The position numbers were made by a program, and so were the translations under genes. From contig CP091279.1 of NCBI GenBank assembly GCA_021650915.1, positions 3,930,001 to 3,962,000 on the forward strand: a stretch of 32,000 nt of DNA. Reading direction: 5' to 3'. This DNA comes from Candidatus Brocadia sp. GTDB lineage: Bacteria; Planctomycetota; Brocadiia; Brocadiales; Brocadiaceae. Positions 2,060 to 32,000 of the stretch are shown here, piece after piece; within the stretch, counting starts at the first letter, position 1, and each line of letters starts with the position of its first letter. Below the pieces are notes generated by a model. That model did no database searches and had not been told where the DNA came from. It worked only from the letters and a program-made list of their open reading frames with translations.

Positions 2060-2072
2060 ACGGACGCTATAG

Positions 2073-3604: not shown

Positions 3605-3612
3605 AAGTTTTT

Positions 3613-3928: not shown

Positions 3929-3935
3929 CCGATTT

Positions 3936-6037: not shown

Positions 6038-6445
6038 TCGGTGAAACACAAAATTCCTGAAACCAGATGGAGATATCTGCGACCGCGTCATACTTACATA
6101 CGGCAGGAAAGGATACGATAGCAACCCTTTCTATGCTCAGAAGAGTTATTAAGTGTCTCATAATTGTATTGATTCGTCGTATGCTTTCCTTCTCCAATAT
6201 TGAGGCGCTAAACGGACAGCTTAATGTGTGTTCTATTATGAGACGATTAATAAGCATCTTTTCAAGGGAAACAAATTGCGGTTACCTCTTTTGCACCTTG
6301 TTTCACGGCAACACCATTTACGCGGCACAATATTTCATCTCGCATGGAGAGATGTTGCACGGCAAACGTGGAAAAATACAGAACTTCATGCCGCATTTTT
6401 AGCAAATAATTTCTCACGCTTTAGGGAACAACCTATTATCAGAAC

Positions 6446-7548: not shown

Positions 7549-7700
7549 GTAATACTTTAGTTTTTTGAAAAGGCAGGGGCGAAGCATTCGCTTGCTTGGG
7601 GTGTGAATACCTGTATGCCAATGTATGGCAAATGCTTCGTCCCTGCACCATGCGGTAATATCGTTATTATGGTAATTTTTCAAAGAAACTAAAGTGTTGC
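7549..7700. mobile_element. MITE copy 1 (152 bp), nested inverted repeats, 8-bp target-site duplication AATCTTTC
   Basis: Termini are GTAATACTTTAGTTTTTTGAAAA ... TTTTCAAAGAAACTAAAGTGTTGC. The internal inverted repeat is GGGGCGAAGCATT...AATGCTTCGTCCCT. It is flanked by AATCTTTC at 7541-7548 and 7701-7708. A second copy lies at 16911-17061. Confidence 0.8.
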
Positions 7701-11752: not shown

Positions 11753-12590
11753 ACTGGAGGATCTTGCCTTCCTTCAGTTTTATCTCAAGGTCGCCGTTTT
11801 CCGCCACCGTTAATCCCTCTATCCCCTGATAAGAAAGCTGCACCCGTGACGGGCTTGCTCCGGGCTGTACGATGATATCATACTCCATCTGACGGTTGTT
11901 GCCGTAGAATTTCATATCTATGCCATCGTACACCCCCTTATAGACTACAGATTCGTACGCAGGGACGTTCGTCTTCCACTTTTTTGGGTCGTTACCAATA
12001 AAGTAATTCACCGTTCCCGGCTGTTCATCTCCGGCAACAATCTCCACGTCCTTCTCCATGCCCAGTGGCATGAGATGTACGATTTCGGATTGCGGATTGC
12101 GGATTGCGGATTTTTTGCCTTTCGCCCCCCTGATCGTATCCTCATCTCTGCCCTGCTGGTTCAGGCTTGCAGACTGAACGGAAACGTCTTGGTCCAATCG
12201 GCCTGCTGCATTTGCCTGACTGCTGTCCACTTGCTCACTTACAGGCGGGGCGCTTGTCCCACCGCCAACCAGCGACAGATACACCCCCCTTTTGGTAAAA
12301 TATGTGGCGTGGCCAGCCCCTCTTTCGTAATATCTTACCCGGCCATCCACCTGGCCGTCATTCCGGATGAATGACAATGGCAGCTTGCCATAGGATTCCG
12401 CTGCCTTCAACCTTGCCAACTCGTCCGGTTTGTCCTGATGTGGCATCGAATCCCGAATCGTATCAAAACATTTTTCATCAAATTTGTTAGCAAGAATGGC
12501 CCCCTTGTCTGTTTCTCCTGCACGCACGGTATCCAGCGCCCCGATTACCAGCATCATCGCCAGAACGCCCAATATATCTCTGTATTGCAT
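11745..12590 (-). CDS. N-terminal piece of the same secreted protein (signal peptide plus the conserved N-terminal domain usually found ahead of SBBP repeats)
   Basis: A signal-like N-terminus (ILGVLAMMLVIGALDTVRA) is followed by YGKLPLSFIRNDGQVDGRVRYYERGAGHATYFTKRGVYLSL and ...YDIIVQPGASPSRVQLSYQGIEGLTVAENGDLEIKLKEGKILQ. It stops at 11745, overlapping the next ORF by 8 nt in another frame. Confidence 0.7.
   Translation of the reverse strand: MQYRDILGVLAMMLVIGALDTVRAGETDKGAILANKFDEKCFDTIRDSMPHQDKPDELARLKAAESYGKLPLSFIRNDGQVDGRVRYYERGAGHATYFTKRGVYLSLVGGGTSAPPVSEQVDSSQANAAGRLDQDVSVQSASLNQQGRDEDTIRGAKGKKSAIRNPQSEIVHLMPLGMEKDVEIVAGDEQPGTVNYFIGNDPKKWKTNVPAYESVVYKGVYDGIDMKFYGNNRQMEYDIIVQPGASPSRVQLSYQGIEGLTVAENGDLEIKLKEGKILQFG
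12086..12113. repeat. Heptanucleotide tandem repeat (CGGATTG) x3 perfect plus one 6/7 unit, inside CDS 11745..12590
   Basis: Read directly: cggattg cggattg cggattg cggattt. On the coding strand it encodes SAIRNPQSEI. Confidence 0.9.
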
Positions 12591-12803
12591 ACCCCTTCCC
12601 TCCTTTTCTCGTTTTTACCAGAAGACTTTTACAATCATGACTGAACTTTCGAAAAAAACTGCTTGGTTGTACACAAAATCCGTCTTTCACGGTATTTGTA
12701 CGCAGCGAATCTTCGCTCCCTTCGCAGACACAGGACAGGCTTAGCCCATCATCAGCGTGCTTTCGCTCACAATCACTACGAGTGAACAAAATATTGATTC
12801 TGT

Positions 12804-12959
12804 AATCCCGAAGAGATGTCATGATTATAGCATATGGTTATGCAAGTATGGTGAACCCCGTAGGGGTGGCATAATATCGTTATTTTTCCGATATTTCACC
12901 CCTACGGGGTTTAATATAGTGGTGCGTTTTTTCTATAATCATGTCATCCCTTCGGGATT
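12804..12959. repeat. REP/MITE-like nested palindromic element
   Basis: Outer arms are AATCCCGAAGAGATGTCATGATTATAG (12804-12830) and CTATAATCATGTCATCCCTTCGGGATT (12933-12959), with 2 mismatches. Inner perfect arms are AACCCCGTAGGGGTG (12854-12868) and CACCCCTACGGGGTT (12897-12911). Confidence 0.6.
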
Positions 12960-12996
12960 TTTCAAGAAGCTACATCGTTACCATTTTTGTTCAAAC

Positions 12997-13060
12997 AAAA
13001 AAAGCCTTACCACCGATCTCCCCCCCCAAGACCTTCGGCAGTAAGGCTGTTTCTTCTCTT
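12997..13060 (-). terminator. Orphan terminator-like hairpin with flanking A/T runs
   Basis: AGCCTTAC(CA)CCGA (13003-13016) pairs with TCGG(CA)GTAAGGCT (13035-13048). On the minus strand the stem is followed by a T run (complement of A7 at 12997-13003). On the plus strand it is followed by GTTTCTTCTCTTTTCTC. No ORF ends nearby on either strand. Confidence 0.35.
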
Positions 13061-13301
13061 TTCTCTTCTTCAGGAAAAGATTCAAAAGACCCTGTTACTT
13101 TGCGCCCCCTGATCACTCAGGGTTTGCCTTTATCGCTCTATCGTGATATTGACAATGTCTTCGTGAAGAGCGTGAATTATGTGCACTATATATTGCTCTA
13201 ACAATCGGTGTCAAGCAAATAATAATACACTTTTTTCGTTGATTGTCCTGCTTATTATTGTTTCAATATTTACTCTAATATATCGTGTCTCATAAAAAAT
13301 A

Positions 13302-13321
13302 TTTTGACATTGTTGTCAAAA
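13302..13321. promoter_or_regulatory. Perfect palindrome TTTTGACA-TTGT-TGTCAAAA (candidate operator; contains a TTGACA hexamer)
   Basis: Two 8-bp perfect inverted arms are separated by 4 bp, about 400 bp upstream of the DUF362 gene. No convincing -10 element lies at the right spacing. Confidence 0.3.
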
Positions 13322-13720
13322 AACGTGAATAGACATAACCCTGCCAGGGTTGACTCGTTTTTCCGACTCATTCGGGTTGGGAAGAAGAGCCAATTGGCCA
13401 TACAACGTTGTTTCCGTTTTTCCTTTGTATGGAGACAAGTAAAGCGGCGTGGAAATTGTTTAAGCGATTAGCGCAACGTTTTATAGAGTCGTGCGGAACG
13501 TCGACGAAGAGGCAGAGGACGGTTCGTTTTTTTATGCATGGGTGGTTAATGACTCTGTCTCGTCACGGGTTATTCAGAGAGACGCTGAGGGTGTTTCTGC
13601 AAAACTTACGAAAACAGCCGCCGTCGCTGTTTCTGCTGCACAAACGGCCTTTAACTCATTTTTTCTTCGCGTTTTTTCATTCATTAATAAATATTACTGG
13701 TCGAAAGATGAGGCTCTCGT

Positions 13721-14713
13721 ATGAGCGCTAAAATATCACGCAGGGCATTTCTTAAGACCAGCATTGCGGTGGGAGCTGGCATTTATGGTGTATCCTATTT
13801 AGGCGGCATCAAAAGGACTCCCGCCATAAAAAAGTTCAAGGAACACCGCTTAAAGCCCGGGCTAATCGTAGCTCACGGAAACATTTCTGATGCAACGGAC
13901 GAACCCGTGATCGTCAAAGAGATGGTGCGGCGCGCCATAAAGGCGCTGGGTGGTCTGGACAAGCTCGTTGCCAAAGGTGACAGGGTTATTATTAAACCCA
14001 ATATCGCCTGGAATCAAAGGCCGGAATTTGCTGCCAATACCAATCCTTACGTCGTGGCAGCCCTTGTGGAGCTATGCAAAGAGGCCGGGGCGGGCCGGGT
14101 AAAGGTCATGGATCATACTTGTTCCGTCAACCCGGAGACCTCGTATACGACGAGTAGGATTGCCGCAATTGCACGGGAAGCGGGCGCTGAAGTTGCGTAC
14201 ATTCATAAGAACCGTTTCACAGACTTTGCCATTCATGACGGCAAGGCGCTGAAGTCATGGCCTTTTTATGAAGAAATGGTGTATGCAGATGAAGTGGACG
14301 TGCTCATCAATGTGCCCATTGCAAAACAACACGGAACATCGAGGCTCTCTATGGGACTGAAAAACGTCTTTGGTATGATCGGAGGCGACCGGGGCAGTCT
14401 CCATACCGATATACATCCCAAAATTGCGGATCTCAATAAATTCCTGAAAATAGACCTGACCGTCCTCGATGCCTTCCGGATACTCAAAAATCATGGGCCC
14501 ACCGGCGGCCGGCTGGATGACGTTGACAATTCTGCAGAATGTGCACGACGCATTATCGTAAGCACCGACCCCGTTGCTGCGGATGCTTACGGCGCGACCT
14601 TATTCAGTATGCAGGCCACGGAGGTGGGATACATCAGGCAATCCCATGAGCAGGGGCTGGGGGAGATCGATTACCGGCGAAAGGGTTTTGAAGAAATATC
14701 GGTAGCATTATAG
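13721..14713 (+). CDS. DUF362-family protein with twin-arginine (Tat) signal
   Basis: The N-terminus, SRRAFLKTSIAVGAG, is a Tat motif. The body has VIIKPNIAW...NTNPYVVAALVELC...PIAKQHGTS...LTVLDA, typical of DUF362. Confidence 0.7.
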   Translation: MSAKISRRAFLKTSIAVGAGIYGVSYLGGIKRTPAIKKFKEHRLKPGLIVAHGNISDATDEPVIVKEMVRRAIKALGGLDKLVAKGDRVIIKPNIAWNQRPEFAANTNPYVVAALVELCKEAGAGRVKVMDHTCSVNPETSYTTSRIAAIAREAGAEVAYIHKNRFTDFAIHDGKALKSWPFYEEMVYADEVDVLINVPIAKQHGTSRLSMGLKNVFGMIGGDRGSLHTDIHPKIADLNKFLKIDLTVLDAFRILKNHGPTGGRLDDVDNSAECARRIIVSTDPVAADAYGATLFSMQATEVGYIRQSHEQGLGEIDYRRKGFEEISVAL

Positions 14714-14864
14714 GAAACGCAACACTACAAATTGGACCATCTTCGGCTGGCGCCCTCAGACCAGAACTTGTGTTGCGGGGCGGAATGATACCAAAGGTCC
14801 TGGTTCAATCGGGGGCGAGTGGACCAGCGAAGGGGCAAGAATACCAAAAATGGGTAAGATTAAA

Positions 14865-15611
14865 TCAGGGGCTCACCTTTAAAATCCCAATTTCCTCCGG
14901 ACTCAACGATTCCGCATAGTCATTGACCTTGTAAAATTCCTTGTAGTGCAGAAGCATCTCATTGGAGTTCTTGTAACCCAGACGGCGACCGTAATTGACG
15001 ATACACATGGTTCGCGCCTCTACAAAAGAAAATCCCTTGAATTGCAACGCCTCAAGAAAACACTTTTTCATATGATTCAGATGATAGGCCGTAGTGCGGG
15101 CATAAAAGCAATTATTGCTCTTAAAGAGGGCCTGCACGTCGGCAGGATAATCGGGATTGCCCTGGGGTGTGGTCAGGGTCTTTGTGCTATGGGGAGTGGT
15201 AGGGGAGACCTGACCGCCCGTCATACCATAAATCTCATTTGCATAACAGATAACGGTAATGTTTGTATTGCGCCGTATCGCATGCAACAGGTGATTGCCT
15301 CCGATGCCGAGCAAGTCGCCATCCCCGCTTACCACGACAACCTTCAGCGCATCGTTGGCATATTTGATGCCTTCAGCCACGGGGATAGCCCTGCCATGTG
15401 CCGTATGGACGGAATCCAGATCGAAGAAACCGGCGCTCCTGCCGGAGCATCCAATTCCGGAAACGACCACCGTCCCTTGCTTTGGCAGGTCAAGTTCGTC
15501 AAAGGCCTGACATATGGTCTTCAGGGCAATTCCGTTCCCGCAGCCGGGGCACCAGGGTGTTGGCAGCAAATCAAGTTTCAGATAACGTTTAAAATTGCTA
15601 TCTTTGTCCAT
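14865..15611 (-). CDS. 2-oxoacid:ferredoxin oxidoreductase, beta (TPP-binding) subunit
   Basis: Motifs WCPGCGNGI, SGIGCSGR, VVVSGDGDLLGIGGNH (TPP GDG motif) and NEIYGMTGGQ are present. It overlaps the alpha subunit by 14 nt. Confidence 0.85.
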   Translation of the reverse strand: MDKDSNFKRYLKLDLLPTPWCPGCGNGIALKTICQAFDELDLPKQGTVVVSGIGCSGRSAGFFDLDSVHTAHGRAIPVAEGIKYANDALKVVVVSGDGDLLGIGGNHLLHAIRRNTNITVICYANEIYGMTGGQVSPTTPHSTKTLTTPQGNPDYPADVQALFKSNNCFYARTTAYHLNHMKKCFLEALQFKGFSFVEARTMCIVNYGRRLGYKNSNEMLLHYKEFYKVNDYAESLSPEEIGILKVSP

Positions 15612-16614
15612 AGATACTTTGCTTTATCTCTTTCAGATCGATACGACCGCCCAGGATCGGGATAAATTCCACTTCACGATGGAGTATACGCTCGATTTCA
15701 TAAACATACTGCCCCATATTCATTTCCATCATAAGAAGCCGCTTGTACCGGGGCGCAATACTCCTGATCTCTTCCACCACCGGGAACATACGGATGGGAC
15801 GGTACAGTGCAAAATCATTCTTAAAATAATAGGCGATCCGGGACAGCACTCCATACGAGATCAGAAGCGTGTCCGTTTCTCCGCTGCATTCCAGATATTC
15901 ATAGTAGTTGTGTCGCCGGGCCGTTGTCTGTTGCTTTTCACGAAAGCGGGTAATCAGCCGCCGGTAATTGTCAGCATCAGAAGTCTTCGGCACAGAGTCC
16001 TCGTGCGACAGCCCGGTAAAATGCCGGTTTCCCGTGCCTAAAGCCGGACGATTTCTTATGGTAATTGCAAAATCACGGCGAGGTTCAATGGTTTCATAAA
16101 GATGGCTGATGTATCCGTCACTGAGAAGGATAACCGGACTCATAGATTCTTCGGCGGCATTAAACGCTGCAATGGTGTACCGGTAGAGCTCTGAGACGGA
16201 ATTGGGATAAAAAACGATGGGAAAATAATCCCCGTGACTGCCATGTGCGCATTGAATAATATCTCCCTGCGCCGGAAGGGTTGGCATGCCGGTGCTGGGC
16301 CCTACCCGCTGGACATTGACAATAACCAGCGGCACTTCCATCATGTGTGCAAGCCCGATGCTCTCCTGCATCAGCGAGAATCCCGGCCCGGATGTGGCTG
16401 TCATGGCCTTGAGCCCTGCCAGTGATGCGCCAATGATAGCGTTGATGGAGGCAATCTCGTCCTCCATTTGGAGCGCCTTGATGTCTTTTTTATTGACCAG
16501 TTCGTGAATAATTTCAGAAGCCGGCGTGATGGGGTATCCTGCGAAGAATTGTAGTCCGGCGATCTCTGCTGCCTGTACAATGGCCTCATTTCCCTGCAAT
16601 AACTGTTTTGGCAT
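15598..16614 (-). CDS. 2-oxoacid:ferredoxin oxidoreductase, alpha subunit
   Basis: LQGNEAIVQAAEIAGLQFFAGYPITPASEI...MEDEIASINAIIGASLAGLKAMTATSGPGFSLM...VIVNVQRVGPSTGMPT is the canonical KorA/PorA/VorA N-terminal region. Confidence 0.85.
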   Translation of the reverse strand: MPKQLLQGNEAIVQAAEIAGLQFFAGYPITPASEIIHELVNKKDIKALQMEDEIASINAIIGASLAGLKAMTATSGPGFSLMQESIGLAHMMEVPLVIVNVQRVGPSTGMPTLPAQGDIIQCAHGSHGDYFPIVFYPNSVSELYRYTIAAFNAAEESMSPVILLSDGYISHLYETIEPRRDFAITIRNRPALGTGNRHFTGLSHEDSVPKTSDADNYRRLITRFREKQQTTARRHNYYEYLECSGETDTLLISYGVLSRIAYYFKNDFALYRPIRMFPVVEEIRSIAPRYKRLLMMEMNMGQYVYEIERILHREVEFIPILGGRIDLKEIKQSIYGQR

Positions 16615-16819
16615 CTATCTCCTCAATTTCAATGGCTATGTCCGGACAATATCGCTCACACATCCGGCAGGCGATACATCGTTCCAATTCCCTTAACTTC
16701 TGCTGTCGAATCTCCAGATTTTTCACCGGACAGAAATTCACACAGATACCGCAGCGCTTACAGTATTCATGGTTAATGTGCACAATTCCTTTTCGTTTGG
16801 GAGTCTTTTCTTCAGGCAC
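16586..16819 (-). CDS. 2-oxoacid:ferredoxin oxidoreductase delta subunit (2x[4Fe-4S] ferredoxin)
   Basis: Two cluster motifs are present: CKRCGICVNFCP and CIACRMCERYCP. At 77 aa, it lies directly upstream of and overlaps the alpha subunit. Confidence 0.8.
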   Translation of the reverse strand: MPEEKTPKRKGIVHINHEYCKRCGICVNFCPVKNLEIRQQKLRELERCIACRMCERYCPDIAIEIEEIDAKTVIAGK

Positions 16820-16910
16820 GTGGTCTTCTCAATCCTCCTGTGATTAAAAGAAAAATCCGCTTTTTTTAGAATAGTCTAGCAATATTATTTATCAAATTCT
16901 AGGAATATTT

Positions 16911-17061
16911 ATAACACTTTAGTTTTTTGAAAAAGTAGGGGCGAAGCATTTGCCAGCTTGGGGTGTGAATACATTTATGCCAATTTATGGCAAATGCTTC
17001 GCCCCTACACCGTGCGGCAACATCGTTATTATGGTAATTTTTCAAAAAACTAAAGTGTTAC
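16911..17061. mobile_element. MITE copy 2 (151 bp), 8-bp target-site duplication GAATATTT
   Basis: Termini are ATAACACTTTAGTTTTTTGAAAAAG ... TTTTTCAAAAAACTAAAGTGTTAC. A perfect 18-bp internal inverted repeat pairs AGGGGCGAAGCATTTGCC with GGCAAATGCTTCGCCCCT. It is flanked by GAATATTT at 16903-16910 and 17062-17069. Confidence 0.8.
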
Positions 17062-21958: not shown

Positions 21959-22064
21959 TTGGAGAGGAATTTATATTTTATTTAAGCGGCTTTCACCGTG
22001 GCACAGACAAACTATTATTTGTCGGCGTCTTCAGCCCCTTGGTAAACCCTCATAACTATTAAGC

Positions 22065-22874
22065 ATGATCAATTCATCGGTACGAAAATTACAAATAAGC
22101 GCTTTCTTAACATTCATAGGGATTAATATCAGGTTCCTTTCGGAAAATGTTTTTAATGCTCTTGTTTTTCTTAATATTCTCCAGTCTGGAAATCCTGATA
22201 ACAAGTATGATTTTCATACGCCAGGCGTCCCGGATGTGTATGGAGACGCAGCAGTCGTTGTTGTGTTTGCCGTTGCATATCTACTCCACAAGTCTGCAAG
22301 TGAAACTATTGTTTTACATATTATGGATTACCTGTATGAGAGACGCAGGCAACGTTTCAAAACTATCAGATATCTAAAAAACTGTATTATCTGGTCAAAA
22401 AAGAACTTTTTTTTAGTTATTACAGGCTTCGGTCTGTATATGGTATCCAAATATCCTTTATCGATAGGATTAGAGCTCATTTTTATTGAGGATATTACGA
22501 CGTTATCTTTTATCCTGAATGTTCTTAGAGGTATAACACTATGGTACTCCTCTTTTATTTTTTGCAGTGTTTATTGCAAGTATCTATTCATAAGTAAATC
22601 TGCCGCTCTCATGATGCATACATTTTTTGTCATAAGGAATCTTTTTGATACCAATGTGTATTGGTTAATTACCTCCTACGACTTGCATATAGGCGCACCT
22701 TTATTAGATGTTTTATCGCCTATCATTATTGTTTATTCAGTAATTTACATCATAGTTAACGGTGGCATATCAAGCCGGATTTTTCACTCTTTAAAAAATG
22801 ATAAACATGAATTTGCACACATGAAAAAGGGCGCCTCCCTTACCGTAAAAGACCTGTCTTTAATTCCCGGATAA
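22065..22874 (+). CDS. Hypothetical polytopic membrane protein embedded in the efflux operon
   Basis: An uninterrupted 269-codon ORF in very AT-rich (stop-rich) sequence. It has several hydrophobic segments and ends 4 nt before the OMF start. No family motif was recognised. Confidence 0.55.
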   Translation: MINSSVRKLQISAFLTFIGINIRFLSENVFNALVFLNILQSGNPDNKYDFHTPGVPDVYGDAAVVVVFAVAYLLHKSASETIVLHIMDYLYERRRQRFKTIRYLKNCIIWSKKNFFLVITGFGLYMVSKYPLSIGLELIFIEDITTLSFILNVLRGITLWYSSFIFCSVYCKYLFISKSAALMMHTFFVIRNLFDTNVYWLITSYDLHIGAPLLDVLSPIIIVYSVIYIIVNGGISSRIFHSLKNDKHEFAHMKKGASLTVKDLSLIPG

Positions 22875-22878
22875 ATCA

Positions 22879-24339
22879 ATGGAAAAATTTAAAAATACCG
22901 TGGTTTTTGGATGTGTGGTTACCTGCTTACTTTTAGCTGGTTGTCAAACAACAAAGAGCACTGAAGATAGCCCCATAAAACCAATACCTGAATCATTTGC
23001 AAGTACGAAAGATTCAACAAATTCAGCAATGATTGACTGGCGGCAGTTTTTCTCTGATGCGACATTAATTGGTTTGATAGATACGGCCTTAAAAAATAAC
23101 CTGGATGTGTTGATGACCTTGCAAAAAATCGAAATTGCACGGGCAGATCTGAAATTGCGCAAAGGCGCTTTGCTGCCGGAAATTTCCGGTGGTGGTTCTG
23201 TTGCACAAAGAAGATTCGGACGATACACGATGGATGGCGCCGGAAACAGAGCAACGGAGATTACTCCTGGGCAAATAGTGCCTGATGACCTTCCCGATTA
23301 TTTTATCGGTTTGCAAACAACCTGGGAAGTGGATATCTGGGGCAAGCTTCGTAATAAGAAGAAGGCCGCATTTGCCCGTTATCTTAGCAGCATCGAAGGA
23401 AAAAACATCGTACTTACCAACTTAATTGCAGAAATAGCAATTACCTATTATGAATTATTAAGTTTAGATACTGAATTGGAAATTATCAAAGAAACCATCC
23501 ATCTGCAGGAAAACGCACTTTCCATTGTTGCCATCCAAAAACAAGCTGCCGCAGCCAATGAGTTGGCTGTACAGCAGTTTGAGGCGCAATTGTTGAATTC
23601 AAGGGCACTGGAAGTTGAATTCCTCCAAAGAATTACCGTGTGTGAAAACAGAATAAACTATTTATTGGGCAGATTTCCACAACCGATCATGCGTAAAAAA
23701 TCAATTCTTCCAAAGGAAATTCCTGCCCAGGTAAAGGTCGGCATTCCATCCGATTTGTTAGAAAACAGGCCTGATATAAAACAAGCTGAGTTTGAATTAA
23801 TGGCCACAAAAGCAGACGTCAAATCAGCAAAGAAGGCATTTTATCCTTCCTTTAATATTACCGGGGCAATGGGTTTCCAGGCTTTCAATACCTCGTATCT
23901 ATTCAGATCACCGGAATCCATTGCATACGCGGTAATGGGCACTTTAACCGCCCCAATAATTAACCGGAGTGCGATTCAGGCGCAATTTAAAACGGCGCAG
24001 GCTAAACAGGTAGAGGCATTGTACCAGTATCAAAAAGCAATTATTAATGGGTACATAGAAGTATATAATGAAATGCATAATATTAAGAATCTGGAGCGGG
24101 CATACAACCTTATCACTAAAAAAGTGACGGCTTTAACTCAATCGATAGAAATATCGTCGGAACTATTCAAGACCGGCAGAGCAAATTACTTAGAGGTATT
24201 GATAACACAACAAAACGCACTCCAGTCAAAATTAGAATTGGTAAGCACCAAACAACAGCAATTCAACGCCAGTGTAAACATTTACAAGGCGCTTGGCGGC
24301 GGTTGGAGACAGATGAAAGAAAAGCCTACGCAAGGATAA
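22879..24339 (+). CDS. Efflux outer membrane factor lipoprotein (NodT/TolC family)
   Basis: The lipobox is LLLAGCQ. The body has two repeats of the TolC-like helical/beta pattern and ends in the family-typical NIYKALGGGW. Confidence 0.9.
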   Translation: MEKFKNTVVFGCVVTCLLLAGCQTTKSTEDSPIKPIPESFASTKDSTNSAMIDWRQFFSDATLIGLIDTALKNNLDVLMTLQKIEIARADLKLRKGALLPEISGGGSVAQRRFGRYTMDGAGNRATEITPGQIVPDDLPDYFIGLQTTWEVDIWGKLRNKKKAAFARYLSSIEGKNIVLTNLIAEIAITYYELLSLDTELEIIKETIHLQENALSIVAIQKQAAAANELAVQQFEAQLLNSRALEVEFLQRITVCENRINYLLGRFPQPIMRKKSILPKEIPAQVKVGIPSDLLENRPDIKQAEFELMATKADVKSAKKAFYPSFNITGAMGFQAFNTSYLFRSPESIAYAVMGTLTAPIINRSAIQAQFKTAQAKQVEALYQYQKAIINGYIEVYNEMHNIKNLERAYNLITKKVTALTQSIEISSELFKTGRANYLEVLITQQNALQSKLELVSTKQQQFNASVNIYKALGGGWRQMKEKPTQG

Positions 24340-24515
24340 GAGCATCCGAATGTTTTTCAGAAAAAAGTGTTTTTGTTCAGAATGAATTACTTCTCTGCAT
24401 CACCTTCCGGCACATAGATTACCTTTCCATCTTTTAACCGATAAGCTGTTCCCAACCAGGCGTCTTCTCCCTGTAGTTTTTTATCGGGAACCTTTTCAAT
24501 TATTATCTGCTTTTC

Positions 24516-24720
24516 GATTCTTCCAGGCGGAATCTGACAGGGACTGCCACCTTGGATTTCACAGAGAGGTCTCCCCTCCGTTCAGGTTGAAATCTCCAAT
24601 GCCTCACTTCTTTTAATCCTCCCGATCAAGGGGTTGATAGCCACTACTCTGTTCAACTTCAACCTGAATCGGCATACCTTTCTTATCTACTTCTACCATG
24701 AACAACACCAATCCTTCATG
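24516..24720 (-). pseudogene. Decayed duplicate of the TonB C-terminal domain (no N-terminus; in-frame TAA plus a 1-nt deletion)
   Basis: It aligns base for base with 29209-29413, the 3' end of intact tonB. Its translation is HEGLVLFMVEVDKKGMPIQVEVEQSSGYQPLDRED* / VRHWRFQPERRGDLSVKSKVAVPVRFRLEE. The tonB equivalent is QEGLVILRVEIDSKGIPVQVEVEQSSGYQLLDRAALKAVRHWRFQPERIGDLPVKSVVAIPVRFRLEE. Confidence 0.8.
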
Positions 24721-24796
24721 TTATAAATACGAAAAATCTTTATTGCAATTAATCCTCTATTATCTTATAAACGGCAAGATTGAAAGGAGGTTAAAT

Positions 24797-24963
24797 ATGC
24801 CATCTGCGAGTACCATACGTAAAGCAAAACTGACAGTAACAATCAGTGGTGTGTGGTTAATGAAATAGACGAAATTGCAAAAGAAAAAGGTACCCCAAGG
24901 AGTCAGGTTATGGAAGAAATGTTACGTGATTGGTTGCTGAAATCCAAAAAGAAAATGATATAA
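24797..24963 (+). pseudogene. Ribbon-helix-helix (CopG/antitoxin-like) gene with a frameshift
   Basis: AAGGAGG precedes the ATG at 24797. That frame reads MPSASTIRKAKLTVTISGVWLMK*. The +1 frame continues VVNEIDEIAKEKGTPRSQVMEEMLRDWLLKSKKKMI*. The switch lies in a GTGTGTGG run. Confidence 0.55.
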
Positions 24964-24977
24964 TTACTGAATGCAGC

Positions 24978-25946
24978 CTAATCCTCATACGGCCCTAGGA
25001 ATCGTTCACCGTTGAAATGGATCAAATGCGTCGGGGTTTCTGCAATCCAGACTTCTGTTTCCCAAGAAATTTCTTCGAGGTATTTCATCATGGCTTTTCG
25101 ATCAAGAAAAGCCGTCACATACACTATGCCAACTTTTGATCCGGCAAACAGCGTCTTTAATTCTTGCCTACGCTTCGGGTTTACGGGACCATGGCTAATA
25201 ACTGCCTCTATCAGAACAAGCCAGTTCTTCTCAACGTGATGCACCACGACATCCGGCATCTTTCCATGCTCTTCTATCTCAATAGCCAACTCCTTAAGCG
25301 CATCGGAATCGAAATATGCCCATTTCGTCTCCGTGTCGCCTACGTATATTACACGTCCCCCTGGGATAAAAAGCGGACAAAAATCGTCTATGATCTTTTT
25401 AATCAATACATTCTGGCCACCTGGCGAAAGACTGAGCTTGCGGCCATTTGATAGCTTAACAGGAATCCGGCGCATATCTCGCTCTCGCGCATAGAGCTTC
25501 TTCAAAGTCTTGAACGCATGCAGATACGAGCGCAAATGGCTACCCCAGGAGGGCCTCCCAAACTCCCGAAACAGCTTCAATGCGAAAGGCTCTATCTGGT
25601 AGACTGCTTGGGGGCTATTTGTCGGTCTCAAAGGTTTATCAGGATTAGGCACAATCACCCCCGCCTGCATAAATTGATGAACCGTCTGTCGGCGTACCGT
25701 CTCCCTGGTATTTGGTGCGTATCGCTTGCCATAATGCACAGCAAAGAACTCCATCATGGGTGTAACACCAATTAATGGGTCGCTTGCGCCCTCCCACGCA
25801 TCGTCAGGTTTGAGGTTCAACAGCGAAAGAAGTGTCAATGCTGAACGCTCATTCTGTTGCTGTCGAGGAAAACCAAGCATTTTTAATATCTCCAGTGCTT
25901 CCTTGATTTTTCGTTCGGCCTTCTTTGTGTCGATTTTTTTAGCCAT
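24978..25946 (-). CDS. Type II restriction endonuclease, BsuBI/PstI family
   Basis: LGFPRQQQNERSALTLLSLLNL...PLIGVTPMMEFF..YGKRYAPNTRETVRRQTVHQF...NPDKPLRPTNSPQAVYQIEP...LIHFNGERFLGPY matches the conserved blocks I recall for this family. At 322 aa it is close to R.PstI in size. Its start overlaps the methylase stop (ATGGCTAA). Confidence 0.8.
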   Translation of the reverse strand: MAKKIDTKKAERKIKEALEILKMLGFPRQQQNERSALTLLSLLNLKPDDAWEGASDPLIGVTPMMEFFAVHYGKRYAPNTRETVRRQTVHQFMQAGVIVPNPDKPLRPTNSPQAVYQIEPFALKLFREFGRPSWGSHLRSYLHAFKTLKKLYARERDMRRIPVKLSNGRKLSLSPGGQNVLIKKIIDDFCPLFIPGGRVIYVGDTETKWAYFDSDALKELAIEIEEHGKMPDVVVHHVEKNWLVLIEAVISHGPVNPKRRQELKTLFAGSKVGIVYVTAFLDRKAMMKYLEEISWETEVWIAETPTHLIHFNGERFLGPYED

Positions 25947-27459
25947 TGATACCGCATTCCGTTTCCAATATCTCGTCTACCATTGCCTGATCTGGCATTT
26001 GATGTTTTATGTGAGCACCGAGCCTCAGCAGTTGCTCGTGAGAAGGATAACGCATCTTTCTCAGGTCAGTGGCGTTGACCTGTGTATGTCCACTGAAAAG
26101 GCGAAAGTACTGATCGAAGAGCGAAGAATTTAGATATAAAGCCAGCCCTTTCGCTAAATTTGCCGATAAGCCTTTACCTTTCGCATGAAAATAATTAAGA
26201 TGGTTCTCAAAACCGACAAGCGCAGCTTCAACCCTGTTGGGGTCGTATATCGCAGCTACGACACGGCGTGGCTCCTCCTTTGTCGAGAAACGCTTTGTGA
26301 GAACATAGTATCCTGCCGGTAACACTAAATCCATTGTCTGTGGCGAAACTGCAATAGCATTTGGCTTTTTTCCTGATTCAGCGGGCCAACTTACAAAGCC
26401 AGACACAAAGTGGCAAGGATATATAAGCGGAGATGTCCCCTCTTCCGGTAAATAGCGGAGATATTCCTGAGCGCGAAAGTCCACAACTCTCCCTGTTGAG
26501 ACATCCACCCCAAGTATGACGAGCGAAGTCGCAAATGCCTCCATCTTCTCCATCAGGCGGTCGTCGGTATCGTTCAATACAAGATGAATGAAAGCATCGC
26601 GATCGCCTGATAAAATAACGTGATCGTATGGAACAGAGCGACTCCTTGATTTGTCAAAGTCCGTACCTTCGGACGACGAGACTATTAATCGCTCCGGTTT
26701 TCGTTCACCCCGAATCATATGATAGATCACATTTTCCTGAAGCACATCGTCGTCCCTGAATGCCTTATTGCGTGACCCAAACACATGAATACGATGTAAG
26801 CTCATCATATTCAGCAGATTAATTCTAAACCGGCGGAAGTACGGCCCATTACAGAAACTTCGGGGCGTAATCGCTACCAATTCGCCTCCAGTCTCAAGCA
26901 ACTTAGCGGATAGCCATACAAACGCAGCATAAAGATTTGACACCCCAAACCCTGCAGCGTCTAGCAATTGGCGTGTTGTCGATTCCCCGACGATCTTCTT
27001 GTAAGGTGGATTGAGTATTACATGAGTGAAACGCTCCCTATGGACAGCAAACAGGCGTCCTTCTGCCTGCGCTATGACCGCCGCAATAAAGTCCTCCACC
27101 CGTATTTCCCCCTGAAAGGGAATACCGGCTCTCTGGCAGATCAACTTGCACCATTCCATGGTTTCTTTCAAGTACTGCAATATCTTCTGATCGTTCTCGT
27201 ATGCAACCACATGAATCGAAAGCGGACGATAATTCCTAGAAAGCAGTGTCTCTACACACGCCGCAAACAGAGTCCCCAATCCTGCACCTGCATCCAGAAT
27301 TCGCACGTGTTCTCTTTCACGCTCAAACAATGATGCCATAAACAGCGCAATCCTGGCAGGTGTCAGGAACTGGCCAATCCTTGAGCGTTCTAGTCGGCAG
27401 CTACTGCCGTTCACTGAGTTACGGACACTATCGAGAATGTTTGTTAATTCAACAGTCAT
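25939..27459 (-). CDS. N6-adenine DNA methyltransferase (gamma class), partner of the BsuBI/PstI-type endonuclease
   Basis: The motif order is GQFLTP, then motif I (ILDAGAGLGTLF), then motif IV (ILNPPYKKI). The long C-terminal region is taken as the target-recognition domain. Confidence 0.85.
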   Translation of the reverse strand: MTVELTNILDSVRNSVNGSSCRLERSRIGQFLTPARIALFMASLFEREREHVRILDAGAGLGTLFAACVETLLSRNYRPLSIHVVAYENDQKILQYLKETMEWCKLICQRAGIPFQGEIRVEDFIAAVIAQAEGRLFAVHRERFTHVILNPPYKKIVGESTTRQLLDAAGFGVSNLYAAFVWLSAKLLETGGELVAITPRSFCNGPYFRRFRINLLNMMSLHRIHVFGSRNKAFRDDDVLQENVIYHMIRGERKPERLIVSSSEGTDFDKSRSRSVPYDHVILSGDRDAFIHLVLNDTDDRLMEKMEAFATSLVILGVDVSTGRVVDFRAQEYLRYLPEEGTSPLIYPCHFVSGFVSWPAESGKKPNAIAVSPQTMDLVLPAGYYVLTKRFSTKEEPRRVVAAIYDPNRVEAALVGFENHLNYFHAKGKGLSANLAKGLALYLNSSLFDQYFRLFSGHTQVNATDLRKMRYPSHEQLLRLGAHIKHQMPDQAMVDEILETECGING

Positions 27460-27546
27460 AATAAATATGGTTTTATCGTCTATCTTTTTCCTCTGGACTA
27501 ATACACAAAAACAGGGATGCTGTATAGTGTTTGCTGGGTTTTCTTA

Positions 27547-28413
27547 TTAGCCAATAATTTCCTCTATGTTTGTTAGTTTCGCCACTATGTCCACATGATC
27601 ACCGTTAACATATTCTTTAGAGATACAACATTTTTTAAATTTCTTTCCACTTCCGCAATAACATGGGCTGTTTCTTTTCTTCTTTTGAAACTCATGGTTT
27701 TTTGCTTTCTTCTTACTAAATTGCAATTCTCCAAAGTCAAATGGTTGTAATTTGTTTGTTGTAATTAATTCTGATAAAAAACGTATCAGCTCAAATTGTT
27801 CCCCGTTGTCATCGTATACCACTACACAGCGCTTATCTGCTGGATGTTTAACCATAGCCACATGATCTGTCTCGACAACATTATGAGCAATTCCATACGC
27901 CATCTGGCCTCTATATAACTCTCCCCTAGTGTGATGACAATCGAAAGTGTCTATGTCCCTTCCACAGATGCTACACTCGAACCTCTCCACAGTAATCCCA
28001 ACACTACAGAAAACACGGTACGGATATAATTTCTCCAATTCTAGTAGCTGGTTCTCAAAAAAACTTACGGCTTGGTTTGTATTTCGGCTCGAAAACTTTT
28101 TTACCTGCCTTAGTTGATCGAGGGCGTCCTGAAGGGAATTCCAGGAGGAAGAAAATTCCATTTTAATGATTTTCTTCCACAGATCGCAGTACGAAGACAG
28201 CATATCAACGAATCTGCTCAATACGTAAAATTCATTGAGTACTTCCTCGTGACTCGCTTTATGTTCTTCTTTTGCGACCGTTAAATTGTTTTTTAGTTGA
28301 TCAATTTGTTCTCTACACTCTTGAAAACTCAAATGGTTCGAGAAATAAAACAACTTCTTAATGGATGGTTTTGATTTTCTATACAGAGATTCTACTTCAG
28401 AGGTGATGAACAT
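27547..28413 (-). CDS. Hypothetical protein: helical N-terminal region, CxxC..CHH cluster, C-terminal SEC-C-type zinc motif
   Basis: It is 288 aa. The cysteine cluster is ECSICGRDIDTFDCHH and the C-terminal motif is NSPCYCGSGKKFKKCC. Its ATG directly abuts the stop of the upstream ORF. No enzyme family was recognised. Confidence 0.65.
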   Translation of the reverse strand: MFITSEVESLYRKSKPSIKKLFYFSNHLSFQECREQIDQLKNNLTVAKEEHKASHEEVLNEFYVLSRFVDMLSSYCDLWKKIIKMEFSSSWNSLQDALDQLRQVKKFSSRNTNQAVSFFENQLLELEKLYPYRVFCSVGITVERFECSICGRDIDTFDCHHTRGELYRGQMAYGIAHNVVETDHVAMVKHPADKRCVVVYDDNGEQFELIRFLSELITTNKLQPFDFGELQFSKKKAKNHEFQKKKRNSPCYCGSGKKFKKCCISKEYVNGDHVDIVAKLTNIEEIIG

Positions 28414-28911
28414 TTACTTGTCCATGAACTTGTTCAAATCGAATTGTTTGATGGTTTTTTGCAATCCATCGACATCACCTTCAAAATGGAACTTTTTAAC
28501 AACGCCTTCTTGTTTGTCTTCATACATGGCTTCCAAATGAATCCGTCCTTTCTCTCCTCGTAATGCCCCTTTCATTCGGTCATAAACGTAATTTGTAACG
28601 AGATTAAGATAAAAGGGGAGAGCAACGTCTTGGGCAAGAAAAACAAGCGGTAGCCAAAAATCGCTAGACTTCAACACTAACCGCTTATCGGCTTTACGCA
28701 CTTCGACATTTAGCTCTGGTTTGTTTTTCCGCAACCATTTTGAAAAATCGCCAGCATCAGGCTTTAATACCAGACCTTCGCATCCTTGATATTTTTCAGG
28801 AGTAATCAAAATGCCAGACAGTGATGAATTTAAGAAATTCCTGAATTCTTTGTCATCATCAACAATGACAACCTCACATGAGTCTTTGTTGTCGAAGATA
28901 TCCATATTCAT
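28414..28911 (-). CDS. Hypothetical 165-aa protein, first gene of the cassette
   Basis: An uninterrupted ORF in AT-rich DNA with AGGTAGGT 5 nt upstream of the ATG. It contains a hydrophobic stretch, FWLPLVFLAQDVALPFYLNLV. No family was recognised. Confidence 0.6.
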   Translation of the reverse strand: MNMDIFDNKDSCEVVIVDDDKEFRNFLNSSLSGILITPEKYQGCEGLVLKPDAGDFSKWLRKNKPELNVEVRKADKRLVLKSSDFWLPLVFLAQDVALPFYLNLVTNYVYDRMKGALRGEKGRIHLEAMYEDKQEGVVKKFHFEGDVDGLQKTIKQFDLNKFMDK

Positions 28912-28982
28912 GATACCTACCTAGGCTATACTGTTTCTATGCAGTCTTTTTTTGCGGTTGTAAAGGAAGTTTGTATTGTAAA

Positions 28983-29010
28983 TGTATAATAAAATAAGCT
29001 ATTCTGTCAA
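28983..29010 (-). promoter_or_regulatory. Sigma70-like promoter for the cassette (and possibly the R-M genes)
   Basis: On the minus strand, TTGACA (complement of 29005-29010) is followed by a 16-nt spacer and then TATACA (complement of 28983-28988). This lies about 70 nt upstream of ATG 28911. Confidence 0.4.
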
Positions 29011-29207
29011 CAAGGATTTAACATCCAGGAATTTCCAACTAGCCACACAGTCACTAAGTTTTTTAATTTGTGCCTTGAGGTTTTCGGGGCGGCGGAATTG
29101 AGAGATTTTATGAGTTATTTTTTAAGGATGTTTAGGTGTTGTTTTGACGAATAATATATTGAGTATATACTTTTCATTCTTTTACATCATCTTTTGCATT
29201 CCGTGCC

Positions 29208-30047
29208 TTATTCTTCCAGGCGAAATCTAACAGGGATTGCCACCACGGATTTAACAGGTAGGTCTCCTATTCGTTCAGGTTGAAATCTCCAATGCCTCAC
29301 TGCCTTTAAGGCCGCCCTATCAAGGAGTTGGTAGCCACTGCTCTGTTCAACTTCAACCTGAACCGGTATACCTTTTGAGTCTATCTCTACCCTGAGTATC
29401 ACGAGTCCTTCCTGACGCATTTGTCTTGCAAGCTGGGGGTATTCCGGCGGTTGATTCTGGAAATAACCCGGTCTGCTTTTCGTTCTGATCGTCCCGAGAG
29501 AAGACTGCGGCATGGTTTTAACTGTTTCATGCTGCTTTTCTTTTGGTGAAGCAACGGATTGAGCAGTATCCGTATTTGGGTGAGGCCGTGCCATCTGCTC
29601 TTCCCGCGGCGTAATCTTAACTGTTTCCTGTTGCCTTTCCGTTGTGGACGCATCAGGCATAACGGTGTCTGTCTCCGGTTTCGGCAGTGTCTCAACCGCC
29701 ACCTGCTGTCTTTCCGCTGTGGGTGTAGATGATTGCGTCGTAGCCACGTTTGGTTGCGCCGGAGCCTCCGGTTTTTCCTGCGGCACAGCTTTCATAACTT
29801 CCTGCTGTTTTTCCATTGCAGGTGTAACGGACTGAACCGACTCCGTATCGGTTTGTGACACGGCAGTCAACAGATCAACGTCGATGCTCCCCGTGTCAGA
29901 TTGAACGCTGTACTGAACAGGCTTACCATAATACTTTCCGCCAACCAAAAACAAGGCGCCATGAATGGATAATGCAAGGATAAATGCCTTAATTATGCCG
30001 TAGGTACCGGGTTTAATCTTGAAATAGCCGAATCTTTCTCTTGTCAT
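29208..30047 (-). CDS. tonB: Energy transducer TonB
   Basis: It has an N-terminal TM anchor (IIKAFILALSIHGALFLV), a long Pro/Glu/Thr/Gln-rich linker and a C-terminal TonB domain (PPEYPQLARQMRQEGLVILRVEIDSKGIP..VEVEQSSGYQLLDRAALKAVRHWRFQP). It overlaps exbD by 4 nt. Confidence 0.85.
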   Translation of the reverse strand: MTRERFGYFKIKPGTYGIIKAFILALSIHGALFLVGGKYYGKPVQYSVQSDTGSIDVDLLTAVSQTDTESVQSVTPAMEKQQEVMKAVPQEKPEAPAQPNVATTQSSTPTAERQQVAVETLPKPETDTVMPDASTTERQQETVKITPREEQMARPHPNTDTAQSVASPKEKQHETVKTMPQSSLGTIRTKSRPGYFQNQPPEYPQLARQMRQEGLVILRVEIDSKGIPVQVEVEQSSGYQLLDRAALKAVRHWRFQPERIGDLPVKSVVAIPVRFRLEE

Positions 30048-30466
30048 TTTTGCAAAGGTTCTCCCAGCTTTGTCTGAATGGCAACTTTCGTGATTCCTGA
30101 AGACCTTACCTCGTCAAGTATTTGAATAGCAGCGCCAAAATAGGCTTCCCTGTCCCCATTAATAAAGACTCTTGTGTCAGGATTTTCTGTCTTTAATTGT
30201 TTCAAGCGCCCGGATAAAAGGCCTGGAGCCAGTTTTTCCTGATTCAGGTATACATCTCCCGACTTTGTGACGGTGATGGTTACCGCCGCCTCACGCTCTT
30301 GAGGGTTGCCGGTAACGGCGGAAGGCAAATTCACGCTGATGCCCTGATTCTTGACCATCGAAAGAGAAACCACTACAAAGGTAGCCAAAAGAAAAAATAT
30401 GACATCAATAAGCGGAATAATCTCTATCCTTGCCCTCCGCCTGGTTGCTGGTAGTGGTATCTTCAT
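30044..30466 (-). CDS. exbD: Biopolymer transport protein ExbD/TolR
   Basis: EIIPLIDVIFFLLATFVV is the single TM. At 140 aa it has a periplasmic domain reading VFINGDREAYFGAAIQILDEVRSSGI. Confidence 0.85.
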   Translation of the reverse strand: MKIPLPATRRRARIEIIPLIDVIFFLLATFVVVSLSMVKNQGISVNLPSAVTGNPQEREAAVTITVTKSGDVYLNQEKLAPGLLSGRLKQLKTENPDTRVFINGDREAYFGAAIQILDEVRSSGITKVAIQTKLGEPLQK

Positions 30467-31071
30467 GAGTTTTTATCCTGTTTTAAAAGTAAAAGTTCGA
30501 GATGTGCAGTGGCATCCTCAATTTCATGCCTGGCTTCTTCAAGGCGCGCATTGAGATAGTTAAACGGAATAAGCGCGACAATGGCGGTGAGAAGGCCGTA
30601 TGCGGTGGCAATTAAGGCCTCGGCAATGCCGCCGGTGATAACCGCAGGCGCCTCAAGCTCTCTGCCTCCCAGAAGACCAAAGGCTTGTATCATACCGATC
30701 ACCGTACCAAAAAGACCCAGGAGCGGCGCAAGGGTGATAATCGTGTCAAGCACCGGAAGCCCCCGGTTAAAGCGCTTCAGTTCCTTATTTGCAGCCTGCA
30801 AAAGGGCATTTGAAAAGGCTTTGTGACGGTGGCGAAGACCGTAAACAAGGGTAACGGCGACAAAATCACCACATCCTTCTCCTGCCTGTATCGCTTCTTC
30901 AATTTTTCCTTTCTCAACTTCAGAAAATATCTTTCCTACCGTTTCCGGGTACCTTGATCTTTTTTCTCGGATAAGAAATGCAATCCGCTCTATAATTACG
31001 GTTAAGGCCGCCAAAGACGCAACGAGGATAGGCCACATGACAGGTCCCCCTCTTAAGAATAAATGAACCAT
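30463..31071 (-). CDS. exbB: MotA/TolQ/ExbB proton-channel protein
   Basis: It has three TM segments and the conserved LDTIITLAPLLGLFGTVIGMI..F and GIAEALIATAYGL blocks. Confidence 0.85.
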   Translation of the reverse strand: MVHLFLRGGPVMWPILVASLAALTVIIERIAFLIREKRSRYPETVGKIFSEVEKGKIEEAIQAGEGCGDFVAVTLVYGLRHRHKAFSNALLQAANKELKRFNRGLPVLDTIITLAPLLGLFGTVIGMIQAFGLLGGRELEAPAVITGGIAEALIATAYGLLTAIVALIPFNYLNARLEEARHEIEDATAHLELLLLKQDKNS

Positions 31072-31090
31072 TTTTTACTCCTTTTAAAAA

Positions 31091-32000
31091 TTAGAACCGG
31101 AAAGCCAATGCAGCACGCACCGCAATGGGTTCGACCGGTTTAAAATGAATGTCATTATGCGAAGCGCCCTCATCTTTCAAGCGCGATGGATAATAATAAT
31201 CAATCTCGTGGTCCTCGTTGTTGAGGAGATTGAAACCCTCGACACTGAGAGTCCAGTTTTTGTTGAAATTGTAGCCCGCTTTTGCACTCAGCAGCCTGGT
31301 GGATCCGGAGCGAATACTATTGTCTTCCGTAAGAGGGCGAGGGCCAAAAAACCGCAACCGTAGTTCACTGAAGAGGCCACGCTCACCTGGCTGATGGAAT
31401 GCAATTCCTGTGGATATAACGCTGTCAATTGCGCCGGGGATGTGTCTGCCCTGCACTCCTTCACCCTCAACAGTTTCGCTAAACTCAGCGTGCGAAAATG
31501 AGAAATCAGCGTCCAGAGAGAGCCATTGGGCGGGCGTATAGTAATTTGTCCACTCGACGCCATAACGTCTCGTCGGGGCGCTGGCTTCAGTGCTGCCAGC
31601 GTCTCCGGAAAAAACGAGCTCAGAATCCATATCCAGCAACCATAACGCCAGCGTGCTTTGCAATCCCTTAACAATCGTCGTGCGCACACCAATTTCCGCC
31701 CCTTTTGTGCGCACTAAAGGATCTGCGGATTCCACAGCGTCTCCCGTTTTTGGATCAACCTGTTGCGTCACGCCGTTCCCGGAATTGCTGTGGAAACCGA
31801 AGCCTCCGCTCAAATAATACTCCGTTTTGGCCCAGGGGCCGAAGACAAGCGACCCTTTGGGGCTAACGATCGCGTCATCTCGCGTGCCAGAGTTGGCGGA
31901 TAAATCACTATTCACATCGAAGTGGTAATAATCCATCCGTAATCCGAAAACCGTGCGGAATTTGTCAGCCCATTGAATCTTGTTCTCGACATAGGGAGAG
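31091..32000 (-). CDS. TonB-dependent outer-membrane receptor, C-terminal beta-barrel (5' end outside window)
   Basis: The frame stays open to the window edge (SPYVENKIQWADKFRTVFGLRMDYYHFD...). It shows alternating amphipathic beta-strands and ends ...AALAFRF, with the aromatic terminal residue typical of OM barrels. Confidence 0.8.
   Translation of the reverse strand, partial: SPYVENKIQWADKFRTVFGLRMDYYHFDVNSDLSANSGTRDDAIVSPKGSLVFGPWAKTEYYLSGGFGFHSNSGNGVTQQVDPKTGDAVESADPLVRTKGAEIGVRTTIVKGLQSTLALWLLDMDSELVFSGDAGSTEASAPTRRYGVEWTNYYTPAQWLSLDADFSFSHAEFSETVEGEGVQGRHIPGAIDSVISTGIAFHQPGERGLFSELRLRFFGPRPLTEDNSIRSGSTRLLSAKAGYNFNKNWTLSVEGFNLLNNEDHEIDYYYPSRLKDEGASHNDIHFKPVEPIAVRAALAFRF

Follow-up and report, generated by a model that had tools for sequence, protein, structure and literature searches.

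The genome of Candidatus Brocadia fulgida, an anammox planctomycete, carries at the 3′ end of its tonB gene a 4,489-nt islet that is bracketed by two same-orientation copies of that gene end, encodes a restriction-modification (R-M) pair, and leaves tonB intact. The islet was analysed within a stretch of 32,000 nt, referred to here as the window, which matches LAQJ01000086.1 at 99.97% identity and several Logan contigs at 100%. It is read here, with slightly better than even confidence, as an R-M "insertion with long target duplication" that spared tonB and was later moved and eroded by homologous recombination.

The bracketing copies are direct repeats of the last 68 codons of tonB, at 24517-24720 (the left copy) and 29210-29414 (the right copy). 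In a pairwise alignment 170 of 204 positions are identical (83.3%), with one 1-nt indel and copy lengths of 204 and 205 nt. A search of the left against the right copy inside the window by BLAST gives an E value of about 6e-49, and the repeat search returns two matches, 24517-24616 with 29210-29309 at 87% and 24610-24720 with 29304-29414 at 79%, between which the 1-nt indel shifts the register. The repeat pair is real and far above chance. An earlier note on this DNA had recognised the same pair, in the same orientation and mostly identical, with the right copy placed one base off; it had also described the left copy as lacking coding sequence upstream and as having an internal TAA and a 1-nt deletion, and in the alignment this copy is indeed preceded by no tonB sequence, with the TAA in frame and the deletion in place. 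Traces of similarity beyond the stop codon, reported there as well, were not found: the match between the copies ends at GAAGAAT, the last T being the first base of the right copy's stop. Beyond this point the left copy runs into a native 4-codon tail and the remnant of a DUF2149 gene, and the right copy runs into island DNA. The intact tonB ends in RFRLEE-TAA, without the 4-codon tail of its closest relatives, and in this resembles unfused alleles such as that of L001. Scans of the open reading frames (ORFs) of the island and the window with Pfam (the tested ORFs of at least 90 aa across the 32 kb) detected no integrase, transposase or phage gene in or beside the insert, in agreement with the earlier note, which had seen no integrase or recombinase in the island. 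No tRNA was found in a scan of the whole window, and no known RNA in an Rfam scan of 22000-32000.

The gene order along the window is an RND efflux operon (membrane fusion protein, RND pump, a 269-aa ORF and outer-membrane factor), the island, tonB-exbD-exbB, and a gene for a TonB-dependent receptor (TBDR), with tonB-exbD-exbB and the receptor gene on the minus strand according to the ORF list and Pfam. The same order is encountered in Brocadia sp. UTAMX2, represented by two assemblies (L105 and L106), in which a single tonB of 283 aa is followed by 146 bp and then by the convergent outer-membrane efflux (OMP) gene, and the island is absent. Judged by a divergence of 0.08-0.3% in the far flanks, UTAMX2 can be regarded as effectively conspecific with the window. 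A more distant Brocadia, L108, also has the OMP gene, a short spacer, one tonB and no island. The comparison that the earlier note had asked for thus exists, with the efflux operon directly beside one tonB in both relatives. The left fragment sits where the end of the single tonB lies in UTAMX2 and is joined to the same downstream DNA, which bears out an insertion into the 3′ end of tonB. A single metagenome scan, seeded with a TonB alignment, yielded no more than 16 anammox loci, which are distant and have other contexts downstream.

An R-M "insertion with long target duplication" was reportedly described by Nobusato et al. in 2000 (Gene 259:99). In the part of Furuta et al. 2010 (NAR 38:2428, PMC2853133) drawn on here, such insertions are defined by R and M genes inside the insert, a size below 20 kb, repeats longer than 30 bp and a single copy at the empty site; the repeats often span the stop codon and so spare the target gene, and Table 2 of that paper shows near-identity of repeats and target (43-47 of 46-47 positions). 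The islet has both R and M genes within 4,489 nt, repeats of 204 and 205 nt, one copy of the repeat in UTAMX2 and L108, and no mobility genes, and its target gene survives. It differs in having repeats of 83% identity that are mosaics of alleles, in an extra cassette that is not R-M, and in its host: the examples in that part of PMC2853133 name no anammox planctomycetes. The islet adds an example to a known kind of R-M insertion and is not a new type of element.

Between the repeats lie a ribbon-helix-helix (RHH) gene, the R-M pair and an unannotated two-gene cassette, the accessory content that the earlier note had named. The restriction protein has the BsuBI/PstI catalytic domain and an N-terminal helix-turn-helix domain, both as full-length profile matches, and the methyltransferase gene lies upstream with an overlap of 8 nt. 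Homologues of the restriction protein share 77-90% identity with it, and the cluster of exact matches carries the name AplI in one source. The R-M genes form a tight unit of 2.5 kb (24967-27467) that recurs in unrelated neighbourhoods, at 89% identity in a Kuenenia genome and at about 82% in two further genomes from metagenomes, of which one is labelled Nitrospirota. The pair is of the PstI/BsuBI type, with CTGCAG as its putative site of recognition and methylation; with AplI-like type IIP systems it shares both domains of the BsuBI_PstI_RE family, the adjoining methyltransferase gene and relatives at 82-89% identity of the unit. CTGCAG is undepleted in the window, where avoidance of this site was not seen (7 sites against 5.6 expected). 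BLAST searches of plasmids and phages gave only matches of about 66%, to BsuBI/PstI endonuclease genes. The RHH gene, which had been called a pseudogene, does carry a 1-nt frameshift, but in this strain alone; it is intact, at 55 aa, in the island-bearing L095 and L096. The frameshift is a 1-nt deletion at 24851, either a very recent mutation or a sequencing error.

In the Kuenenia contig L109 (JBDIWA010000022.1) sharp direct repeats of 108 nt (5914-6021 and 9587-9694, 105 of 108 positions identical) enclose the R-M unit, a leader sequence and a truncated RAYT-like transposase ORF, with no integrase. Long repeats thus flank this R-M family at a second locus, where they look younger. The leader precedes the R-M unit in Kuenenia and the cassette in the window, and its last 52 nt also occur in L089 (94%), upstream of the cassette. 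The cassette was therefore apparently inserted between the leader and the methyltransferase gene, and the leader may be a shared regulatory element that serves as a site for the exchange of cargo genes. On the Nitrospirota contig (L118) a PIN-toxin/antitoxin pair lies by the R-M unit and is bracketed by 61-nt direct repeats at 90% identity (5335-5395 and 6283-6343). The earlier note had proposed a search for the island in other genomes; the complete island turned up only in contigs of B. fulgida, and its modules occur separately elsewhere.

Neither repeat copy is simply resident or simply imported: both are mosaics, with the cargo-adjacent segments the most foreign. Columns 1-205 of the repeat are numbered in tonB orientation. 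In the right copy, columns 1-113 have one mismatch to UTAMX2 and are thus resident sequence; columns 114-142 are identical to the left copy at 29 of 29 positions, with one mismatch to the P0123 lineage and five to UTAMX2; and columns 143-205 have at least 7 mismatches in 63 positions to every sampled allele. In the left copy, columns 1-40 have 11-14 mismatches in 40 against every sampled allele, and several of the amino-acid changes there equal states found in distant anammox TonBs. Its columns 41-87 have 1 mismatch in 47 to P0123, columns 88-113 have 5 in 25 together with the 1-nt deletion and contain the TAA, and columns 114-225 have 4 in 112; columns 88-113, like 1-40, stand apart from all alleles sampled. 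For most of its length the left copy agrees at about 97% with P0123, another Brocadia lineage, and it is about 19% off UTAMX2. The 29-nt block of perfect identity, GTGAGGCATTGGAGATTTCAACCTGAACG, lies within repeats that are otherwise 80-83% similar.

The earlier note had read the repeats as the footprint of an island's integration that brought along a replacement 3′ end. The insertion at the gene end stands, and a non-resident replacement 3′ end is in place, since the last 84 compared nucleotides of the right copy (columns 121-204) differ from the UTAMX2 empty-site allele at 15 positions and the tail of the clade is missing. The left copy cannot, however, be equated with a displaced resident end, and resident sequence makes up the first 113 nt of the right copy. 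The strain-variable junction, the divergence that reaches neighbouring genes and the cargo units that occur separately in other genomes speak for homologous recombination at an older insertion over a single clean integrase event, though an integrase may have been involved at the outset. A view of the left copy as a uniformly decaying native copy, drawn from the 34 left/right differences when these were polarised by L001, L004 and L005 alone, was discarded: with the DNA of UTAMX2 and P0123, most of the supposedly left-unique changes in columns 143-205 turn out to be allelic (P0123-type) and the first 113 nt of the right copy to be resident.

Divergence between the window and UTAMX2 is graded around the islet. 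It is highest at 24431-24516 (48%) and in the last 84 nt of tonB (18%), falls on the OMP side to 5.0% in the 3′ half of the OMP gene (23800-24339) and 1.5% at 23000-23799, and on the other side to 2.6% in the tonB linker and 0.9% in exbD/exbB; farther out it is 0.08-0.4%. Where the OMP genes of the two differ, a set of five outgroups sides with UTAMX2 by 30 to 8, so that the island-bearing haplotype carries the unusual OMP allele. The divergent 3′ half of the OMP gene, at 5% against a background of 0.1-0.3%, is taken to mark a recombination tract linked to the island. Island-bearing strains are of two types, whose island interiors differ at 5 of 4,487 positions. Strains of the L095 type are non-UTAMX2 at four sites in columns 74-96 of the right copy and UTAMX2-like in the tonB linker and exbDB, and strains of the window type show the reverse; the resident-like part of the right copy ends near column 120 in the window type and near column 72 in the L095 type. 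Flanks and junctions of this kind are the mark of an allele that homologous recombination brought in and that different strains then eroded in different ways, and they speak against a single fixed crossover. As a separate observation, the last 85 nt or so of tonB and the first 75 nt or so of the DUF2149 remnant in UTAMX2 (L105 10754-10925, against window 24431-24516 and 29211-29294) are oddly divergent from all other lineages; this patch is 69-81% identical to L108, against 87-88% in the adjoining segments, and carries an 18-nt deletion. The empty-site allele of UTAMX2 may itself be a recombinant patch.

Under the favoured reading of a long target duplication, an R-M-led unit would have inserted in some Brocadia lineage and duplicated the last 205 nt or so of tonB, with one duplicate keeping tonB intact and the other left as a dead fragment on the original downstream DNA. 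The island haplotype would then have entered the B. fulgida population, and been eroded there, through homologous recombination in the flanking genes, a step that is better supported than the origin. Recombination in the flanks would explain the differing repeat alleles (83%), the mosaic repeats and the strain-variable junctions, and it is on account of the graded flanks and the mosaics of the strain types that the low identity of the repeats is attributed to later exchange with other Brocadia alleles. The insertion, the empty site, the lack of mobility genes, the separate occurrence of the cargo units and the mosaic, graded flanks are observed directly; the mechanism of the original duplication, like the direction and number of the recombination events, is what we infer from these patterns. 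Chromosomal islands without an integrase, such as defence and capsule loci, can move by homologous recombination in conserved flanks. With these the islet has in common presence and absence within a species, divergence that peaks at the islet, and tracts that differ by strain; it differs in that one of its flanks is an internal duplicate of a gene end, so that recombination between the copies is also possible.

Several points weigh against this account. The repeats, at 170 of 204 positions, lack the near-identity of the published duplications, and each copy stands well apart from the empty-site allele (15 of 84 positions in right columns 121-204, about 19% for the left copy), so that a later replacement of alleles has to be assumed. 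The segments regarded as old, left 1-40 and right 143-205, do not overlap, and for this reason the original identity of the two copies cannot be checked. The perfect 29-nt block, together with a right-copy stop, GAAGAATAAG, that is as in L001, is also what an element-borne att arm would look like. No flanking repeats were found around the homologous R-M units in L113, L118 and L111, and those in L113 and L118 indicate that repeats are not a constant accompaniment of the unit; the 108-nt repeat pair of Kuenenia is known from an occupied locus alone. Finally, gain of the islet in B. fulgida, as opposed to its loss in UTAMX2, rests mainly on the outgroup count of 30 to 8.

The main rival, itself unlikely, is a site-specific island whose attP arm brought the replacement tonB end, with the crossover core in the 29-nt block and a tyrosine or serine recombinase that has since been deleted or is encoded elsewhere. 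Integrase islands target the 3′ ends of tRNA or protein genes and supply a replacement end, and the recombinase usually lies beside one att site. The islet resembles them in its duplicated gene end, in a gene restored by insert-linked sequence, in a displaced fragment at the far end, and in a short perfect block within imperfect repeats. In keeping with this, the sequence that restores tonB is non-resident, ends with the stop codon and is without the 4-codon tail of the clade, the 29-nt block is perfect within repeats of 80-83% similarity, and in the window strain the right copy is resident-like up to the block, from which point the left copy again resembles the intact allele of the other lineage. 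However, there is no recombinase in the island or in the 32-kb window, nor are there excisionase, conjugation or phage genes in the islet, and the crossover does not appear to be fixed, given that the resident-like tract of the L095 type ends about 50 nt earlier. The left copy, moreover, is P0123-like on both sides of the block and not split there into element and resident sequence, and the whole island was seen only in B. fulgida, with modules that are found separately elsewhere and cargo units that are individually mobile. Less probable again is a RecA-dependent process of the Campbell type, in which a non-replicating circle looped out through the repeats, with one hybrid tonB arm, re-enters tonB by a single crossover at a variable position. 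Such repeated crossovers would leave the arm ends nearest to the cargo (left 1-40, right 143-205) the most divergent and the centre like the alleles of recent hosts, as is seen; junctions vary between strains, and no integrase is present. A single reciprocal crossover would not be expected to leave both copies P0123-like or identical over columns 114-142, and the divergent tracts reach hundreds of bases past the repeats into the OMP gene and exbBD, for which import of linear DNA by a double crossover is a better fit than a 205-nt arm.

A slimmer prospect is that the islet is a recombinase-free mobile unit with a tonB arm of about 200 nt, spreading by RecA only among co-resident anammox lineages, its R-M pair enforcing retention and its SEC-C cassette constituting a new anti-phage system. 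The least credible of the alternatives derives the left fragment from a tandem tonB paralogue or a local segmental duplication, with the accessory genes arriving later between the copies. B. fulgida does have a second, divergent operon (CobN, TBDR, ExbB-like and DUF2149) upstream of the tonB cluster, but this operon is also present in UTAMX2 and is unrelated to the repeat. In UTAMX2 and L108 the single tonB directly precedes the same DUF2149 remnant and OMP gene as does the left fragment; since the fragment takes the 3′-end position of that single gene and runs on into the same DNA downstream, it does not derive from a second tonB. A second full-length paralogue, which the earlier note had named as the observation that would overturn the insertion, was looked for, and none of the relatives examined has a second tonB at the locus. 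On these comparisons a paralogous origin is effectively refuted.

The cassette between the leader and the R-M unit consists of a gene for a 165-aa protein followed by one for a 288-aa protein with a C-terminal SEC-C motif. A cassette unit (27485-29015) of 91% identity occurs in L089, where the tonB-proximal sequence found upstream in the window is missing; the L089 contig ends 2 nt past the cassette match, so that an R-M gene downstream could not be seen. The cassette is widespread (236 hits for the 288-aa protein and, for the 165-aa protein, 173 cluster representatives), and in all four of the other contexts examined (L089, L091 and L092-L094) its genes lie side by side. Distant copies adjoin MmeI/Eco57I-like genes in one context or housekeeping genes. 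The 288-aa protein has an invariant CxxC...CxH together with His, Asp and Lys positions; its AlphaFold2 model, a confident one with a predicted local distance difference test (pLDDT) score of 89.7, has no significant fold match in the PDB or BFVD. Contigs of IMG/VR match only the 20-residue SEC-C motif of this protein, and PADLOC hits to it are likewise confined to that motif. The cassette is a candidate new defence or addiction module.

The DNA beyond the left copy records an older event. In L001, L002 and L004 (B. pituitae) an operon of about 8.3 kb lies between tonB and the OMP gene and encodes TBDR, DUF4430, CobN-like, ExbB-like and DUF2149 proteins (L001 1754-9775; L004 11500-19248). The DUF2149 remnant in the window is the scar of the loss of this TBDR/CobN operon. 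The junction between tonB and DUF2149 is also present in UTAMX2, L108 and P0123 (in P0123 the DUF2149 3′ end is seen as far as a short contig extends), where it gives tonB its 4-codon tail, with endings of ESGGR, EKENR and ESESR; the left copy ends in ESKSR and a stop. Since the junction is common to these island-free lineages, the loss of the operon preceded the arrival of the island. As a source of the remnant, a TBDR/CobN operon that had been tandemly duplicated or translocated was considered and rejected, the remnant and its AAGAA junction being present in island-free UTAMX2 and L108. The gap between tonB and the OMP gene is variable in Brocadia, and B. carolinensis (L005) retains almost nothing there. 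The features of the locus are listed in Table 1.

Table 1. Features of the tonB islet and its borders, in coordinates of the window
Feature	Position	Strand	Evidence or remark
Outer-membrane efflux (OMP) gene, convergent with tonB	22879..24339	+	Pfam; 3′ half (23800-24339) 5% off UTAMX2
3′-end remnant of DUF2149 gene, fused to old tonB end at AAGAA microhomology	24388..24512	-	relatives
Native 4-codon tail SKSR and stop of displaced tonB end	24503..24516	-	C-termini of relatives
Left direct repeat, dead tonB 3′ fragment with 1-nt deletion and in-frame TAA, mosaic	24517..24720	-	alignment
Inserted islet, 4,489 nt, missing from UTAMX2 and L108	24721..29209		empty-site comparison
Small RHH (CopG-like) gene with its own Shine-Dalgarno and promoter-like site	24797..24962	+	frameshifted here; intact 55 aa in L095/L096
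BsuBI/PstI-family type II restriction endonuclease, 322 aa	24978..25946	-	Pfam E=3e-63, 2e-51; PADLOC REase_II E=3e-135
Cognate N6-adenine DNA methyltransferase, 506 aa, Eco57I-type fold	25939..27459	-	Pfam; PADLOC MTase_II 2e-163
288-aa protein, CxxC...CxH and C-terminal SEC-C motif, second cassette gene	27547..28413	-	Pfam, alignment, model
165-aa protein, no family match, first cassette gene	28414..28911	-	Pfam, PADLOC
127-nt leader with TTGACA-type promoter	28965..29091	-	85% identity to Kuenenia R-M upstream region
Right direct repeat, last 68 codons of intact tonB	29210..29414	-	alignment
Intact tonB, 279 aa	30047..29208	-	ORF list; Pfam TonB_C E=6e-23

The 269-aa ORF between the RND pump and the OMP gene (22065-22874) has no Pfam match and a GC content of 32-38%; just 7 nt separate the two efflux genes in L002, L003, L004 and L011, which marks the ORF as an insertion within the efflux operon. 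UTAMX2 has the ORF too, and L001 has at least part of it, the L001 locus beginning inside it. A defence-type cluster at 441-4346, directly past the 3′ end of glyQ, comprises a truncated C5 cytosine methyltransferase (142 aa), an Mrr-type endonuclease, a Vsr mismatch endonuclease and several ORFs without a family match. A second pair of direct repeats (7550-7687 and 16912-17049) is intergenic, 138 nt long and 89% identical, with its copies 9.4 kb apart, and a 44-nt piece of it also occurs in L089. In L096, an assembly of 3.25 Mb, a copy of window 12442-17010 that ends inside the 138-nt repeat lies upstream of the TBDR gene and replaces the CobN operon; the joint has a 41-bp overlap and reflects either a rearrangement or a misassembly.

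Knowledge of island biology is unchanged by this case. To our knowledge, anammox bacteria have not been obtained in pure culture and cannot be manipulated genetically. For this group the islet is a clean natural case of R-M and defence genes entering a chromosome without a recombinase of their own while the target gene is spared, and the empty-site genome, the two strain types and the graded mosaic flanks are a direct record of recombination between Brocadia lineages. The case also flags the widespread SEC-C cassette as a candidate defence module. Were spread by RecA alone to prove true, tonB, a gene of essential function, would always be regenerated when the unit re-integrated after looping out between its repeats.

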